Counted from the stretch's first letter, positions 6,389 through 26,330 are shown. The stretch is DNA of 64,000 nt from a bacterium (GCA_016706845.1 JADJIV010000004.1:47727-111726), one strand, 5' to 3'. The notes: generated by a model not told the origin, from the sequence alone. Made by a program: numbers and translations.

Positions 6389-7132
6389 TCAGTCGAAGTC
6401 CCGGACCACACCCCTGAATTCGGGCAGGCGCGCCAGGCCGCGCAGCGCCTCGAGATCCTTCAGGATGACGCGTCGCCCCTTGACCTCGATCAGGGTCTGG
6501 TCCTGCATCTGCCGCAGGATGCGCGACAGGGAGGGCTGGTTCATGTTCAGCATGGTGGCGAGGTCGCGCTTGCGGGTCGGCAGTTCGACCTGGGCGGCGG
6601 TGACGTAGCCGGCGTAGGGGCTCTTCTCGTGGAGCCCCACCAGGTAGCGGGCCAGCCGCTGGGCGCCGTCGCAGAGGGTCAGCTCGTCGATCTTTTCGAT
6701 GAGCTGCTGCATCCAGCCCGCCATGACCTCCAGCACGTAGCCCTGCAGAGCGGGCTGCCGCGACATGCAGGCGAGGAACGGCTCGCGCGTGAAGCACAGC
6801 AGGGTGCTCGGCTTCAGGGCGATCGCCGTCACGGGGTGGCTCGCCATGAAGAGCGACGCCTCCCCGAACACGGCCTGCCGCTCGGCGAGGTGGACGATGT
6901 GCTCGCGGTAGCCGGGACCGGAACGGATCAGCTTGACCTGGCCGTCGCAGACGAAGTAGACGCCCTGCGGCCGGTCCCCCTCCTCGAACAGGGTGGCGCC
7001 GGCCGCGCACACCAGCGGCGCGGCCATCTCCAGCAGGGCCGCGCAGATCTCCGGCCCCACCTTCCGGCCGAACGGGCTGTCGGCCAGGTGTCCGGCGCAT
7101 TTGGCATCGACGGTCGAGTCCATGGGCTCCAT
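6389..7132 (-). CDS. Crp/Fnr family transcriptional regulator
   Basis: cNMP-binding domain (TLFEEGDRPQGVYFVCDGQVKL, VFGEASLF) plus HTH (LPTRKRDLATMLNMNQPSLSRILRQM). Start at 7132 or 7123. Confidence 0.9.
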   Translation of the reverse strand: MEPMDSTVDAKCAGHLADSPFGRKVGPEICAALLEMAAPLVCAAGATLFEEGDRPQGVYFVCDGQVKLIRSGPGYREHIVHLAERQAVFGEASLFMASHPVTAIALKPSTLLCFTREPFLACMSRQPALQGYVLEVMAGWMQQLIEKIDELTLCDGAQRLARYLVGLHEKSPYAGYVTAAQVELPTRKRDLATMLNMNQPSLSRILRQMQDQTLIEVKGRRVILKDLEALRGLARLPEFRGVVRDFD

Positions 7133-7278
7133 CTCCCCCCGGTCGGCGCGTGTCGGGGCTATCATCCCTCAAAAGCGGAGAGAATCAACCCCTTCGGTCG
7201 AACGGGGTCAAGGGACGGGGGCGCCGCCCGTACGGGCAACGCCCCCTGGTCGCGTTCGGCACGCTTCGCGAGCGTCGC

Positions 7279-8217
7279 TCAAACCCCCGCAGCGTGCTCC
7301 ACGCGGATGCTGACCGAACCGTCCATCTCCGAGCGCAGATCGGGCTTGGCCACGGCTTCGACCTTGATCCAGTCGTCGGAGAGCAGCATGCACCCGACCA
7401 GGAACTCGGCCACGACCTTGGCCCGGTCCTGGGCCAGCCGCTTGTTCTCGGCCTGCACCACGACCTTCAGCGGCGAGTAGGGGTGGTCCTTGCGGATCTG
7501 GTCCGCCGCGCGGGTCAGCCAGCCGCGACCGCTGTCGCGCAGGAGCGTGCCGCCCTTCTGGAAGACCTCGTCGCCGGTGAACTCGAGCCGGCGCTCGTTC
7601 TTCTCGCGGTAGTCCACGGCCGGGATGCGGAAGCTGATGCCGGCGTAGTTGTAGGTGTTGGTCCCCTTGTCGGTGACGCTGAAGACGTAGCTGTAGGGGT
7701 AGCCCACCTGCAGCATCTCGTTCAGGTCGCCGCGGCCGTCCCAGGCGACCTGGCCCGGCGGCTGGCCCTTGTCCTCGAAGTGCCGGAACGGGGCGCCCCG
7801 GAAGTCGGTCACCGTCAGGGCCCAGCGGCGGGCCTGGTGCCCCTCGGGGTCCTCCGGGAAGAACGTCACCACCGGCGGCTGCGCCGGATCGCGCAGCCAG
7901 CAGTGCGGCGCCTGGTCGCTGTGCAGGTCGCGGGGGTTGTTCAGGAAGGGCTGCAGGCCCTCGACCGGGCTGATCTCCAGGACCGCCTCGTCGAAGTCCG
8001 TGAAGAACGTGTCGATGATCGCGGCGCTGAGCGCGACCTCGAACGTGCTCTTGACGATGTCCTGCAGGACCTGGTTCTCGGCCTCCACGACCATCTCGGG
8101 CAGGCCCTGGTCGGGGACCGTCTCCTGTTCCGTCACGGCGGGGGCCGGGGCGCTGCCGAACAGGAGGCAGGCGCCCGCGGCGATGATCCGGAATCCCCTG
8201 AAGTCGTTGCGAGTCAT
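7279..8217 (-). CDS. Secreted protein: TonB-box-like segment, FlgD-like Ig domain, degenerate OmpA-like C-domain
   Basis: AAAGGA RBS before ATG 8217; signal peptide; PEMVVEA; RRWALTVTDFRG..VAWDGRG..YSYVFSVTD; C-terminal LAQDRAKVVAEFL. Confidence 0.72.
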   Translation of the reverse strand: MTRNDFRGFRIIAAGACLLFGSAPAPAVTEQETVPDQGLPEMVVEAENQVLQDIVKSTFEVALSAAIIDTFFTDFDEAVLEISPVEGLQPFLNNPRDLHSDQAPHCWLRDPAQPPVVTFFPEDPEGHQARRWALTVTDFRGAPFRHFEDKGQPPGQVAWDGRGDLNEMLQVGYPYSYVFSVTDKGTNTYNYAGISFRIPAVDYREKNERRLEFTGDEVFQKGGTLLRDSGRGWLTRAADQIRKDHPYSPLKVVVQAENKRLAQDRAKVVAEFLVGCMLLSDDWIKVEAVAKPDLRSEMDGSVSIRVEHAAGV

Positions 8218-8271
8218 GATGTGTGTCCTTTGACTCAGGTTCATCGGCTATGGAGTTGTCGGGGTTCCGCC

Positions 8272-9618
8272 CTAGTTGAGGCGGAAGACGATCGTGATCA
8301 CCCCCCACTGCTCGACACGGTCCGCTCCGGCCAGGGGCTCGAAGCGGAACTGCTTGACGGCGTCCATCGCGGCCCGGTTCAGGTCGCGGTGGGCCGAGGT
8401 CTGGTCGAAGTACATGTTGTCCTTGACGCGCCCGTCGGGCAGGACCGTGAAGTGCACGGCCACCACGCCTTCCCAGCCGGCCTTGCGGGCCGCCTCGCTG
8501 TAGACGGGCATGGCGCTGGCGGCGACCTTGCGATCGCTGATCTGGCCGCTGATGGTCATCGAGACGCCCTTGCCGCCCATGGCCTTGGCCTGCGTTTCGG
8601 CCAGCTGCGTCTGCGGCGGGGCCGTCGGCTTGCTGGTGGCCTCGGCCACCGCCGCGGCGGTCGGCGTCTCGGCCGGGGCCTGCTGGCGGCCGCGCAGGCT
8701 GGCCTGGCCGGTGGCGCCGGTCGCGCCGCCGGGACCGTAGTCCAGGATGGTGGTGCGGCCCTGCGTGGAGCGCGCGGGCGCCGCCACGTCGACGGCGGCC
8801 GCGGCCCGGCGGTCGTTGTCCTTCGCGGTCTGGACGAGCGCGGCCACCGAACCCTGGTAGGCCGTCTGGCCCTCCTCGAGCCGGCCGCCGACCAGACCGG
8901 CGTGGCCGGTCTCGCTGCCGCCGGTGGCCAGCTGCAGGGCCATGCGGCCGCCGCCGGACGACGTCCCGCCCTGCCCGACCTCGAAGTCGACCTCCGAGAG
9001 GTCCACGCTGCTCTTGCGCCCGACCAGCGCCACGTCGTTGCCCTGGAACGCGGCCTGCGCCTCCCGCGACGTCAGGCGCGGCGCGTTCGCGTCCGCGGCC
9101 AGGGCCGAGGGATCACGCAGGTTGCGCGTGTCGAGCCGCGGCGCGGCGTCGGCGAACGTGCGGGAATCCAGCTGGCGCGAGGTGGTGTCCAGGAACTGCC
9201 GCTGCTGGGCGGACGTCAGGTGCGGGGCGTCGACGTCCGCGGCCTGGCGGCTCTGCAGCAGCGGACGCGTCGCCAGCTTGTTCGGCAGGGTCTGCAGCAT
9301 AGGCCGGCTCTGCAGCGCGGGCTGCGGCGTCTCCGGCTGCGGGACCGGCGTCTCTTCGAGCTTCGACTCGGCCGGCGTCTCCTGCTTGGGCTGGACCACC
9401 GGCTGGGTCTTGACGCGGACCTGCTGGGCCACGTCCTCGCCGTAGCGGGCCTCGATGTAGGCGATCTCGGTCAGCTCGTCGAGGGCCTCGCCGGCCTTGC
9501 GGGCGCCCTCGCGCATCATCAGCGCGAGCAGCAGGAAGATGGCGGCGTGGATGATGACGCTGGTGGTGAAGCCGCCCGTCGTCGCCGCGCGGCGGCTCAT
9601 CTCGTGTCTCATCATCAC
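8272..9618 (-). CDS. TonB family energy transducer with long periplasmic linker
   Basis: N-terminal TM with SVIIHAAIF (SxxxH); Pro/Gln/Ala-rich linker; TonB_C domain PVYSEAARKAGWEGVVAVHFTVLPDGRV..LNRAAMDAVKQFRFEP. Confidence 0.88.
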   Translation of the reverse strand: MMMRHEMSRRAATTGGFTTSVIIHAAIFLLLALMMREGARKAGEALDELTEIAYIEARYGEDVAQQVRVKTQPVVQPKQETPAESKLEETPVPQPETPQPALQSRPMLQTLPNKLATRPLLQSRQAADVDAPHLTSAQQRQFLDTTSRQLDSRTFADAAPRLDTRNLRDPSALAADANAPRLTSREAQAAFQGNDVALVGRKSSVDLSEVDFEVGQGGTSSGGGRMALQLATGGSETGHAGLVGGRLEEGQTAYQGSVAALVQTAKDNDRRAAAAVDVAAPARSTQGRTTILDYGPGGATGATGQASLRGRQQAPAETPTAAAVAEATSKPTAPPQTQLAETQAKAMGGKGVSMTISGQISDRKVAASAMPVYSEAARKAGWEGVVAVHFTVLPDGRVKDNMYFDQTSAHRDLNRAAMDAVKQFRFEPLAGADRVEQWGVITIVFRLN

Positions 9619-22911: not shown

Positions 22912-23724
22912 TTGCCCAGGACAGCCAGGCGTCCGCGGCTGACCGCCGCCACCGCCGATCCCCACTGGCTCTACGAGAACGCCGTGCAGAACCCCGAGGC
23001 CGAAGTCGAGTTCATCGACCGCGCCTTCGCCGCCGTCTACGGGCGCCCCCCGCGCGACCTGCGCGAGGACTTCTGCGGCACGCTCAACCTGGGCTGCAGC
23101 TGGATCCGCCACCGCCCGGACAACACGGCGCTCGGCGTGGACCTCGACGGCCCGACCCTCGACTGGGGCCGCGAGCACAACGTGCAGCCGCTGGGCGCCG
23201 ACGCCGCGCGCGCCACGATGGTGCAGGACGACGTGCGCCGCGTCTGCGGGCCGCCCGTCGACGTCCTGGCCGCCACGAACTTCTCGTGGTGGTGCTTCCA
23301 CGAGCGCGCGGAACTGAAGGGCTACCTGGAGAACTGCCGGCGCTCGCTGCGGGACGAAGGCATGCTGATGCTGGACATCTTCGGCGGGTCCGAGGCCCAG
23401 GTGCTCCAGTTCGAGGAGCGCGACTGCGAAGGCTACACCTACGTGTGGGACCAGGACGCCTTCAACCCCATCACCCACGAGTACGTCTGCCGGATCCACT
23501 TCCGCTTCCCCGACGGCAGCGAACTGACCGACGCCTTCGTCTACCACTGGCGCCTGTGGTCGATCCCCGAGGTGCGCGACCTGCTGCTGGAGGTCGGCTT
23601 CTCGCGGGTGGAGGTCTACTGGGAGGGCGCCGACGAGGACGGCGAGCCCAGCGGCGAATTCCAGATCGACAACGGGGGCGACAATTCGCCGGCCTGGGTG
23701 GCCTACATCGTGGCTTTTCGCTGA
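22912..23724 (+). CDS. Class I SAM-dependent methyltransferase
   Basis: TTG start with GGGAG RBS; HWLYENAVQNP, LREDFCGT, ALGVDLDGPTL, LMLDIFGG, FVYHWRLWSIPE. It is only the tail of the spurious 15760..23724 track ORF. Confidence 0.85.
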   Translation: MPRTARRPRLTAATADPHWLYENAVQNPEAEVEFIDRAFAAVYGRPPRDLREDFCGTLNLGCSWIRHRPDNTALGVDLDGPTLDWGREHNVQPLGADAARATMVQDDVRRVCGPPVDVLAATNFSWWCFHERAELKGYLENCRRSLRDEGMLMLDIFGGSEAQVLQFEERDCEGYTYVWDQDAFNPITHEYVCRIHFRFPDGSELTDAFVYHWRLWSIPEVRDLLLEVGFSRVEVYWEGADEDGEPSGEFQIDNGGDNSPAWVAYIVAFR

Positions 23725-23750: not shown

Positions 23751-23787
23751 GAAGGCGGGGAGGGTCGCCCTCCCCGCCTTCTTTTTC
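23751..23787 (+). terminator. Intrinsic terminator
   Basis: 14-bp stem gaaggcggggaggg/ccctccccgccttc followed by T5. Confidence 0.8.
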
Positions 23788-23803: not shown

Positions 23804-24151
23804 TCAGCCGCAGCTGCCGCTGCCGCAGCTGCCGCCCCCGCACTCGCCGCCGAGGCGGTCGGCCAGGTTCAGCGTGTAGCCCCTGCGGGCGCCGTCGTCG
23901 ACGTAGTCGATGACGATGCCGCCGCCCTGCTCGATCACCGAGACCACGTCCGGCGCCAGGATGAAATCCAGCGTCCGGGTCGAAACTGTCTTGTCGTCGT
24001 CCTTAGGCTCGTCCAGAGCCATGCCCACGGAGGGACCGCCTCAGCCGAAGCCCTGGAAGTAGAGTCGGATGGCCCGCAGGCCGTCCGGCGGCAGGTCGAG
24101 GGCGCCGAAGGCGTCCGCCGCCGCGTCGGAGATCCGGATCAACTCGTTCAC
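23804..24151 (-). CDS. HesB/IscA-like selenoprotein (UGA at 24041-24043 read as Sec)
   Basis: In-frame read-through gives MNELIRISDAAA..IRLYFQGFG-U-GGPSVGMALDEPKDDD..GECGGGSCGSGSCG, matching the HesB-like (C/U)xGPSxGMALDEP pattern; candidate SECIS downstream. Start GTG 24151 or ATG 24160. Confidence 0.8.
24001..24043 (-). promoter_or_regulatory. Bacterial SECIS element candidate
   Basis: Hairpin GGCUC-UGGAC-GAGCC (24020-24006); the loop starts 25 nt after the UGA and has G at loop position 2. Confidence 0.6.
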
Positions 24152-24221
24152 GTCCCACATCCTCGCTGGAGTGTCGCAATCGGTGGTTCCAGTGTAATCA
24201 ACAAAGATCGAAACTGCAAGA

Positions 24222-24250
24222 GAAAGCCCCGGCCGCGGGGCCGGGGCTTC
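24222..24250 (-). terminator. Intrinsic terminator
   Basis: aagccccggcc/ggccggggctt stem, 4-nt loop, short U tract on the minus strand. Confidence 0.7.
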
Positions 24251-24279: not shown

Positions 24280-26199
24280 CTACTTCACCAGCATGAGCTT
24301 GCGGACCTGCAGCACGTCGCCGCCGATGCGCAGACGGGCGAAGTAGGTGCCGCTGGCCACCTGCTGGCCCGCGTTGTTGGTGCCGTCCCAGGTCACGACG
24401 CGCTCGCCGCTGCCCTGGAGCCGCTCGTTGACGAGCGTGGAGACCAGCTCGCCGCGGATGTTGTAGACGTTCAGCTGGACCAGGTTGTCCCGCGTCAGGA
24501 CGAAGCGGATCTCCGTCTTGGGGTTGAACGGGTTCGGCTTGATGCTCGAGAACCCGCCCGCGGGCAGGATCTGGGGCAGGTCGCCCTCGACGGCCGTCGC
24601 GCCGACGGTGATGTCCTCGTCGCGCAGCGGGACCAGCTGGAACTCGCCGAAGGCGTAGTCCATGAAGCCCTTCACGGTGACCACGTCGCCGATGACCGGC
24701 GCGTACACCATGTTGAAGGCGGCGTTGACGACCAGCGAGTCGGCCCGCGCGCCGGTGTCGGAGACCAGGAACTCGCTGTACAGGGCCGAGCCCAGGGTGT
24801 CGACCACGGTCGAGGAGAACGTGCTCACCAGGACGCTCTCGTAGGCCTCGCCCAGGTAGCCGCCGGGCGACGTGTCGTCGGCCAGGACGGCGGTGTGCGC
24901 CTGGTTGTAGGCGGGCAGCGCGTTCTCGAAGGAGATGTACTCGATCGCCGTGCCGTTGTGCGGGTTCATCTCGGTCAGGCCGAAGTACTCCTCGATGTAG
25001 CCGCCGACCTGGACCTCGTCGCCGGGCAGCAGGAAGTTGGCGGCGGTGCCCTCGTAGCAGAGCAGGCCGCTGAAGGTGCCCGAGCCGTCCTGCATGATGA
25101 ACTTGCTGGTCGAGCCGGCGTCGCCGGTGCCGGCCGTCACGATGCCCTGCACGTTGACAACGCGGCCCGTGAACGGCGAGTTCTGCGGGGTGGTCGCGGG
25201 GTCGACGTACTGCACGTCGTGGATGGACGTGATGCCCACCGCGACCTCGTACCAGCCGGCCGGGGCGTCGCCCGGGTTCAGCGAGATGTTGCCGTTGCCG
25301 TCCAGGGCGCGGACGTAGAAGTCGACCTGACGGCCCAGGAAGCCGCCGGGGATGGTCGCCGACCACGTGCTGCCGCTGGTGTTGGTCATCGGGGTGCTCA
25401 GGAAGACGCCGGTGCTGTCGCCGGAGTCGTCGCGGTAGTAGAGGGCCGCGGAGGTCACGGCGACGTCGTCGGTGATCGTCGCGGTGACGGTGATCGGGTC
25501 GCTGGCCAGCGGGGTCCAGTCGGCGCAGTTGACGGCGTCGACGATCGGGCCCGAGCCCTCGATGAGGTCGCTCTGGCGGCGGGGCTTCAGCTCCATGATG
25601 CCGCCCGTGAAGTTGACCAGCGGGGCGATGATCCGGTAGCTGTCGCCGATCGCGACGCCGCCCGTGTTGATCCCCGTGTCGGTGTCGACGTAGACGATGA
25701 TGGTGTCGGTGCCGGAGTGCATCTTGAACTGGTTGGAGGCCACCGCCGTCGAGATCGTGCCGGAGATCGAGACGAACTTGCCGACGTTTTCGTAGTCGGA
25801 CTTCGCCTGGGCGATGGTCATCGTGACGGGCGTCGGAGCGGCCTCGGCGCCGAGGAAGGTGACCGTGGGCGCCGGGGAGAGCTGGATCTCGCCCTGGAAG
25901 ATGCCGACGGTGCCGGTGACCGAGACCCGGTCGCCGTAGGTCAGCGGGGGAGCCGCCGAGTTGAAGAAGGCGATGCCGTTGCCGGAATCGTCGATGATGT
26001 AGTGGGAGCCGGCGTTGTAGGTGCCCTTCAGAACGTAGACCCGGCCCTCGACCGTCTGGGTCGTGCCGTTGTAGGGGCTGGCCGGGGCGCCGGTCGTCGG
26101 ATTGTAGTACTGGATGTCGTCGATCGTCTGGGCGGCGGCCAAGCCGGCCACGCACACGACGACGGCGAGCGCCACGGCGCTCTGAATCGATCGCTTCAT
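24280..26199 (-). CDS. Secreted multi-OB-fold protein with FlgD/T9SS-like CTD
   Basis: ATG 26199 with AGGAG RBS; signal peptide; TIDDIQY..SPYNG and SIHDVQY..SPFTGRVVNVQGIVTA modules; CTD KPNPFNPKTEIRF..VYNIRGELV..WDGTNNAGQQVASGTYFARL..VRKLMLVK. Confidence 0.88.
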   Translation of the reverse strand: MKRSIQSAVALAVVVCVAGLAAAQTIDDIQYYNPTTGAPASPYNGTTQTVEGRVYVLKGTYNAGSHYIIDDSGNGIAFFNSAAPPLTYGDRVSVTGTVGIFQGEIQLSPAPTVTFLGAEAAPTPVTMTIAQAKSDYENVGKFVSISGTISTAVASNQFKMHSGTDTIIVYVDTDTGINTGGVAIGDSYRIIAPLVNFTGGIMELKPRRQSDLIEGSGPIVDAVNCADWTPLASDPITVTATITDDVAVTSAALYYRDDSGDSTGVFLSTPMTNTSGSTWSATIPGGFLGRQVDFYVRALDGNGNISLNPGDAPAGWYEVAVGITSIHDVQYVDPATTPQNSPFTGRVVNVQGIVTAGTGDAGSTSKFIMQDGSGTFSGLLCYEGTAANFLLPGDEVQVGGYIEEYFGLTEMNPHNGTAIEYISFENALPAYNQAHTAVLADDTSPGGYLGEAYESVLVSTFSSTVVDTLGSALYSEFLVSDTGARADSLVVNAAFNMVYAPVIGDVVTVKGFMDYAFGEFQLVPLRDEDITVGATAVEGDLPQILPAGGFSSIKPNPFNPKTEIRFVLTRDNLVQLNVYNIRGELVSTLVNERLQGSGERVVTWDGTNNAGQQVASGTYFARLRIGGDVLQVRKLMLVK

Positions 26200-26330
26200 A
26201 CTGTCTGTCTCCTCTGCTTCGGACACACGTTTCCCGCGCAGGGCACGAGTTGGGAGTCGGATCCAGGCGTCAAGTTCAGGATTATGAAGCGTGGAAAGTG
26301 GATCGCGGCCCATGACTCAGTGCACGCAAG

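Follow-up and report, generated by a model that had tools for sequence, protein, structure and literature searches.

HesB-like proteins have been listed as a selenoprotein family since 2004-2006 (the Kryukov and Gladyshev family). They are among the commoner bacterial selenoprotein families in surveys (PMC1794560) and are listed in a 2026 review with the motif UxGP (TIGR01911; PMC13188914). For the HesB-like protein of Methanococcus maripaludis, the function of which is given as unknown, selenocysteine (Sec) insertion has been confirmed by 75Se labelling (PMC11097638). The present study concerns a gene of this type in a metagenome-assembled genome (MAG) of an uncultured member of Candidatus Krumholzibacteriota, situated in a stretch of 64,000 nucleotides (GCA_016706845.1, JADJIV010000004.1:47727-111726), hereafter the window, to which all unprefixed positions refer.

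A single frame runs on the minus strand from ATG 24160 to a TGA stop at 23806-23804 and contains one internal in-frame TGA, at 24043-24041 (codon 40). The first-pass annotation had proposed that a HesB-like selenoprotein gene is split here by the annotation, that reading TGA 24041-24043 as Sec yields a continuous protein of about 115 residues, and that a stem-loop with a G-containing loop lies 25 nt downstream. These three points were borne out. Standard ORF finding calls only the 74-codon ORF at 23804-24028, JGI gene calls split the orthologous Sec copy into pieces of 40 and 70 aa, and the public protein databases hold the family as "hypothetical protein" fragments of 66-77 residues, including 74-aa ones. 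With TGA translated as U, the frame reads ...IRLYFQGFG-U-GGPSVGMALDEP... and closes with the tail CGGGSCGSGSCG. The 118-aa product from ATG 24160 is MWDVNELIRISDAAADAFGALDLPPDGLRAIRLYFQGFG-U-GGPSVGMALDEPKDDDKTV...GGECGGGSCGSGSCG, in full MWDVNELIRISDAAADAFGALDLPPDGLRAIRLYFQGFG-U-GGPSVGMALDEPKDDDKTVSTRTLDFILAPDVVSVIEQGGGIVIDYVDDGARRGYTLNLADRLGGECGGGSCGSGSCG. The start is probably the in-frame GTG at 24151, which gives a product of 115 rather than 118 aa, because ATG 24160 is not kept across the genus (ACG or AAG in three of seven genomes), whereas the GTG is genus-conserved, lies 8 nt 3' of a GAGGA and coincides with the ATG start of remoter orthologues. The features of the locus are as follows.

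23804..24160, minus strand: HesB/IscA-like selenoprotein gene in a single frame, with orthologues in 35 of 36 same-family genomes and at 79 public loci
24041..24043, minus strand: in-frame UGA, residue 40 counted from the ATG, in the motif G-F-G-U-G-G-P; same column in all orthologues, Cys in homologues, aligned to the Cys of GGGCSG in 2apn
24006..24020, minus strand: putative SECIS hairpin with a 5-bp stem and a pentaloop containing GG; invariant in 73 unique TGA genes and destroyed in TGC paralogues
24160..24164, minus strand: Shine-Dalgarno-like GAGGA, 8 nt upstream of GTG 24151, read from the sequence and genus-conserved
23807..23842, minus strand: Gly/Cys-rich C-terminal tail C-GGGS-C-GSGS-C-G (Cys107, Cys112, Cys117), from alignments of orthologues; aligned to TCGCGS of 2apn
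23751..23781, no strand assigned: bidirectional intrinsic terminator with a 14-bp stem, between the selenoprotein gene and a convergent methyltransferase-like gene
24225..24242, minus strand: terminator of the upstream gene with a T9SS tail, marking the 5' limit of the selenoprotein transcription unit

As in the HesB-like selenoproteins of TIGR01911, the predicted product is small, resembles HesB and IscA and has one Sec, placed in U-x-G-P, here G-F-G-U-G-G-P, with Cys homologues at that position and, as in the bacterial members, a SECIS just downstream. It differs in that the model is 92 positions long and the match stops before the Cys-rich tail. The best NCBIfam model is NF038090 (IscA_HesB_Se) at 56.8 bits, followed by TIGR01911 (HesB_rel_seleno) at 35.6 bits, so that the family assignment of the first-pass annotation stands on motif and best model, although the scores lie below the cut-offs of both selenoprotein models (85 and 66.35, respectively). 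TIGR00049 (25.8 against a cut-off of 58.8) and Pfam PF01521 (13.7 against 26.3, a marginal match) were likewise below threshold. Other Krumholzibacteriota members reach 60-61 bits on NF038090 (57-61 across the clade), under the cut-off of 85, which distant Syntrophales-type relatives sharing both core and hairpin passed at 107-116 bits. The NF038090 members above the cut-off, from Syntrophales, Syntrophorhabdaceae and a Pseudomonadota-labelled MAG, have in common with the Krumholzibacteriota clade the core G-U-[GS]-G-P-S-x-G-M-A-L-D-E-P, a C-terminal Cys cluster and the hairpin bases AUGGCUCUGGAUGAGCC, which are identical. Protein identity to the Krumholzibacteriota clade is, however, only ~30-38%, and that clade is set apart by FQGFG where the others have EGG ahead of the Sec, by an R-[RK]-G-Y motif and by a Gly/Cys tail that is longer and closes with C-G. 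Motif, Sec/Cys exchange and SECIS features are thus those of the known HesB-like selenoprotein family and the model scores are not, and the gene represents a divergent clade of that family.

The only significant sequence match in the PDB was the IscA-type protein HI1723 (2apn). In the alignment U40 falls on the first ligand Cys of this protein, within GGGCSG, and the tail falls on TCGCGS. An AlphaFold2 model built with 47 orthologues had a pLDDT of 71, with values below 50 in the Cys-rich tail, and Foldseek placed it with SufA (2d2a) and IscA (1r94, 1x0g, 1s98) at a probability of 1.00 and TM scores of 0.56-0.75. The modelled fold is therefore that of the IscA/HesB type (A-type iron-sulfur carriers). 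Within the tail, C107 is present in at least 90% of aligned sequences and C117 is invariant, and by alignment the tail is the predicted counterpart of the C-terminal CxC ligands of IscA. The protein thus resembles IscA, SufA and ErpA (1r94, 1x0g, 2d2a, 2apn) in its modelled fold, in having Sec where they have their first ligand Cys, and in tail cysteines aligned with C-G-C-G-S. It departs from them in 18-24% identity, in scores below the TIGR00049 and PF01521 cut-offs and in its ligand pattern: the three-Cys arrangement C...C-x-C of A-type carriers is not found, since the first ligand is Sec rather than Cys and the tail is C-x4-C-x4-C, with CxC in only some orthologues.

We consider it about 90% probable that this is one gene in which Sec is inserted SelB-dependently at UGA40 by way of a hairpin within the ORF, giving a protein like the A-type carriers with a selenolate as first ligand. 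On this reading, UGA 24043-24041 would be decoded as Sec by SelB-GTP-Sec-tRNA(Sec), with SelB recruited by the 15-nt in-ORF hairpin GGCUC-UGGAC-GAGCC 20 nt downstream of the UGA. Of the three cysteine ligands that A-type carriers have, the selenocysteine would stand in for the first, and the Gly/Cys-rich tail would supply the remaining ligands. Judged from fold and ligand positions only, the protein may bind or transfer Fe-S clusters or iron with a selenolate ligand. We infer Sec insertion itself from the conserved frame, the UGA/Cys pair, the constraint on the hairpin, the IscA/SufA fold and the Sec machinery of the lineage.

Within the same taxonomic family (Candidatus Krumholzibacteriota), an orthologue was found in 35 of 36 genomes, being missing from G008 only, and every full-length copy has one in-frame TGA in one alignment column at identities down to 39%. 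The copy in the window is 97% identical to its orthologue in G006. A scan using one genome per GTDB species gave at least 502 relatives; 79 loci were retained, all of which (79/79) carry TGA at the shared column, at identities as low as 30%. Most belong to Candidatus Krumholzibacteriota, with remoter copies in Syntrophales, Syntrophorhabdaceae, Ignavibacteriales, Zixibacteria and one Pseudomonadota-labelled MAG. In the translated orthologue loci the TGA sits within a near-invariant block, [FY]xQGFG-U-[GS]GP[SA]xGMALDEP, and U-[GS]-G-P is present in all orthologues. The codons just 5' of the TGA vary synonymously (TTC/TTT, GGC/GGT/GGG) with the amino acids fixed, which argues for selection on the protein, within the shared frame, in the part before the TGA that annotation takes to be non-coding or a peptide of its own. 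A profile search of 1.84 billion representatives returned one protein at E <= 1e-30, together with several fragments of 66-74 residues that start just past the Sec position. The databases show only fragments because the clade scores under the HMM cut-off that triggers selenoprotein annotation, and a phylum-wide gene is consequently recorded as hypothetical fragments only, which gives the corrected frame its value for annotation. A second copy of the gene, on the 6-kb contig C37 (G000:C37:802-6055), was rejected as a paralogue; the contig is collinear with C4:70522-75738 over 5.3 kb at 85.8% identity and is a co-binned fragment of a related population.

The expectation that the UGA would align with Cys in homologues was confirmed in three places, namely the homologue P0010 (116 aa, GFG-C-SGP, with Cys at the Sec position), tandem TGC paralogues and the first ligand Cys of HI1723. 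The TGC (Cys) paralogues, found in some Krumholzibacteriota (L150:2784-3690, and also L151, L152, L105 and L114), each stand beside a TGA (Sec) copy about 200 bp away, and the two could be a Sec/Cys isoform pair.

In the bSECISearch consensus, a bacterial SECIS has a small apical loop with a G, 16-37 nt from the UGA. In the present gene the hairpin GGCUC-UGGAC-GAGCC (5' arm 24020-24016, loop UGGAC 24015-24011, 3' arm 24010-24006; -8.1 kcal/mol) has its stem beginning 20 nt and its loop 25 nt past the UGA, and it lies inside the coding sequence, where it also encodes M-A-L-D-E-P. Taken singly the hairpin proves nothing, because single-sequence folding of the region was no more stable than shuffles (z = 0.24) and a loose SECIS rule was satisfied after 26% of random TGA triplets in this genome of 71% GC, but the comparative data place it, on the evidence of the aligned genes, beyond chance. 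All 15 hairpin bases are invariant in the 73 unique TGA genes, save for G-U wobbles, and third positions are fixed at Ala48 (GCT, T in 73/73), Leu49 (CTG, G in 73/73) and Glu51 (GAG, G in 73/73), whereas in the equally invariant Gly42, Pro43, Gly46 and Pro52 codons they take three to four bases. The constrained synonymous bases are exactly those of the stem and the loop G. Only 1.4% of the Ala codons of the genome are GCT, yet this codon is required for the U-A pair of the stem, and the sole changes in the stem are three G-U wobbles (G-C to G-U, via Pro to Ser and Pro to Leu). In the TGC paralogues G-M-A-L-D-E is kept but spelled with GCG or GCC and CTC, by which the stem is broken and the loop G is gone. 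This codon usage indicates that the hairpin is under selection at synonymous sites only where the codon is UGA. The same amino acids with or without the hairpin, according to whether the codon is TGA or TGC, amount to a natural experiment for SECIS recognition.

RNAalifold recovered the same 5-bp helix from 67 sequences, but neither a conserved lower stem nor any compensatory double change. Another small helix, surrounding the UGA, was discounted, as it is built of fixed Gly and Pro codons. The locus has two features of a bacterial SECIS, a stem-loop shortly past the UGA with a G in a small apical loop and a structure selected beyond the needs of the protein. Like the SECIS of the E. coli fdhF type, and with features as described in PMC1088965, the putative element is an in-ORF hairpin with GG in a 5-nt apical loop starting 25 nt after the UGA. 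Unlike that type, it conserves a helix of just 5 bp, has neither a lower stem nor a bulged U that is conserved, and is invariant over several phyla rather than co-varying. Two further UGA genes of this genome carry the same loop type, SelD with (C)GGA(G) and a cytochrome with UGGAG.

The first-pass annotation had further inferred that the organism has the Sec-decoding trait and that other selenoproteins in it are likely mis-annotated. The latter proved correct, for SelD, an UshA-like PCGU protein, an Omp28-related protein and a decahaem cytochrome with a conserved UGA all fall in this class. SelD (TIGR00476, 343 bits) is itself UGA-containing, in SAG-U-AAKL, and at L001:1501-2424 (G000:C32:36065-36988, minus strand) a hairpin GGCC-CGGAG-GGCC follows 12 nt after the UGA. 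The other three were recovered by a GC3- and hairpin-based scan of the genome for UGA genes, a stricter GC3-based version of which missed both known cases; most other hits (nuoI/nuoJ, tatA and others) were discarded as adjacent genes sharing a frame by chance. Selenocysteine thus appears to be in use in Krumholzibacteriota, and this MAG has at least five genes that contain a UGA. The UshA-like metallophosphatase (G000:C20:77749-79017, plus strand) has its TGA in EPCG-U-HGNP with a 7-bp hairpin, and a partial query scored 155 bits on NF041198 (UshA_like_PCGU). The secreted thioredoxin-like/Omp28-related protein (G000:C15:93956-95047, minus strand) carries its TGA within SAG-U-PYC and has a hairpin whose loop is GGUC; the best match is a weak one of 39 bits to NF045500 (Omp28-related selenoprotein).

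The third of these genes encodes a lipoprotein cytochrome c with ten CxxCH motifs (L134:1501-2616; G000:C27:9205-10320, plus strand), with the in-frame TGA in KDDG-U-GGSVPALEAWEKV and the motif KDDG-U-GGSVPxLEAWEKV. The TGA is kept in 15 of the 15 orthologues found among 37 relatives, down to 51% identity, and in some orthologues the hairpin that follows, CCCGCGC-UGGAG-GCGUGGG, has a compensatory change from C-G to A-U. Full-length homologues without the UGA have no Cys at the Sec position. The cytochrome had no hit among NCBIfam models. The recently described MccSep/ExtKL proteins have a Sec position unlike that of this cytochrome (PMC13510729), and assignment to them was rejected on the lack of an NCBIfam hit and on a Sec near the N-terminus rather than in the C-terminal domain. 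It may represent an undescribed selenoprotein family.

As to the decoding trait itself, three of its components were found. A tRNA-Sec with anticodon UCA (G000:C15:9100-9198) was detected by ARAGORN and by Rfam RF01852 (67.8 bits against a threshold of 47), and selD and selB are present. The selB gene (L013, about 6543-8420; G000:C1:54581-56417) scores 310 bits on TIGR00475 and has the SelB winged-helix domains, but carries a 1-bp insertion relative to G006 and G003 at about C1:55480, where it reads GAGAGCCGG and two genomes of the genus read GAGTCCGG and GAGACCGG. The extra base throws the frame off near residue 400 and, if real, would leave the strain unable to decode the UGA. The selA gene was not found in this 83.8%-complete MAG.

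Both observations favour a reading in which the gene is a selenoprotein gene of the lineage whose full protein this organism cannot make, selB being truly frameshifted and selA perhaps lost in a very recent loss of the trait. The insertion is, however, probably an assembly error, because a canonical iscA-like gene (PF01521; G000:C1:150569-150872, minus strand) on the same contig is likewise split by a 1-bp insertion, again relative to G006 and G003; a HI0933-like gene on C48 also looks frameshifted, and the assembly seems to contain indel errors. The selA gene, carried by every one of the six genomes of the genus and by 35 of 37 relatives, appears to fall in an assembly gap, because the sequences on either side of it in G006 match the ends of two contigs of this MAG, C24 (40097-42450) and C14 (106046-111446); the intervening stretch is about 6.3 kb in G006 (L153:2357-8657) and contains selA. 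Moreover, the selenoprotein gene, its hairpin and the three further UGA genes are intact, the first at the 97% identity to G006 given above. Loss of the trait hangs on one base in selB, and we regard it as unlikely. The canonical PF01521 gene, present in the genus and as the frameshifted copy in this assembly, also led us to reject the idea that the selenoprotein is the only A-type carrier of the organism.

Less probable still is that the annotation is right and the TGA a true stop, separating a 39-codon upstream ORF from a 74-codon gene that opens with GTG 24028. The split form is indeed what gene callers and public databases record, and a GTG stands five codons past the TGA. Yet in more than 100 genomes the two halves share a frame and the TGA stands in a single column, the Cys homologues are continuous proteins, only the joined product gives the complete IscA fold with a ligand position at the UGA, and the hairpin-forming synonymous constraint is present only with the TGA codon. 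Every bit as improbable is that the UGA is read as an ordinary residue (Trp, Cys or Gly), whether through a changed code, a suppressor or near-cognate decoding. Decoding of that kind exists in some bacteria and has nothing specific in its favour here; against it stand the facts that TGA is the ordinary stop of this very gene, with a terminator after it, that the genome encodes tRNA-Sec (anticodon UCA), selD and selB, that homologues have Cys and not Trp or Gly at the UGA, and that a conserved hairpin would be needless.

Selenocysteine insertion into a divergent HesB-like protein being the preferred reading, a more far-reaching one is possible, though we hold it to be doubtful: the Krumholzibacteriota proteins may form a distinct, uncatalogued HesB-like subfamily with a selenolate-ligated Fe-S cluster or a part in selenium/sulfur trafficking, and with a frozen, dual-coding SECIS that possibly spread with the gene. 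The points behind it are the scores below every curated cut-off, the near-universal presence in the phylum, the glycine-rich tail with three Cys, and a 15-nt SECIS of one and the same sequence in Krumholzibacteriota, Syntrophales, Ignavibacteriales and Zixibacteria. Were it true, the tandem Cys isoform of some lineages could serve as a backup at low selenium. Knowledge of selenoproteins in general is left unchanged by this gene.

The selenoprotein gene appears to be monocistronic, because the terminator at 24242-24225 precedes its 5' region and the terminator at 23751-23781 follows its stop; no sigma-70-like promoter was found at the gene. The convergent neighbour (window 22945-23721, plus strand) is a class-I methyltransferase-like gene with a weak match to Pfam Methyltransf_12. 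It is kept at 57 of the 79 loci and is the only widely conserved neighbour, and in other genera an RND-type transporter lies upstream of the selenoprotein gene. Across the 79 loci neither the methyltransferase-like nor the RND-type neighbour shows a tie to Fe-S or selenium metabolism. The upstream neighbour in the window (24283-26313, minus strand) encodes a secreted protein of 677 aa with a C-terminal sorting domain of the FlgD_ig / CHU_C / Por_Secre_tail type.
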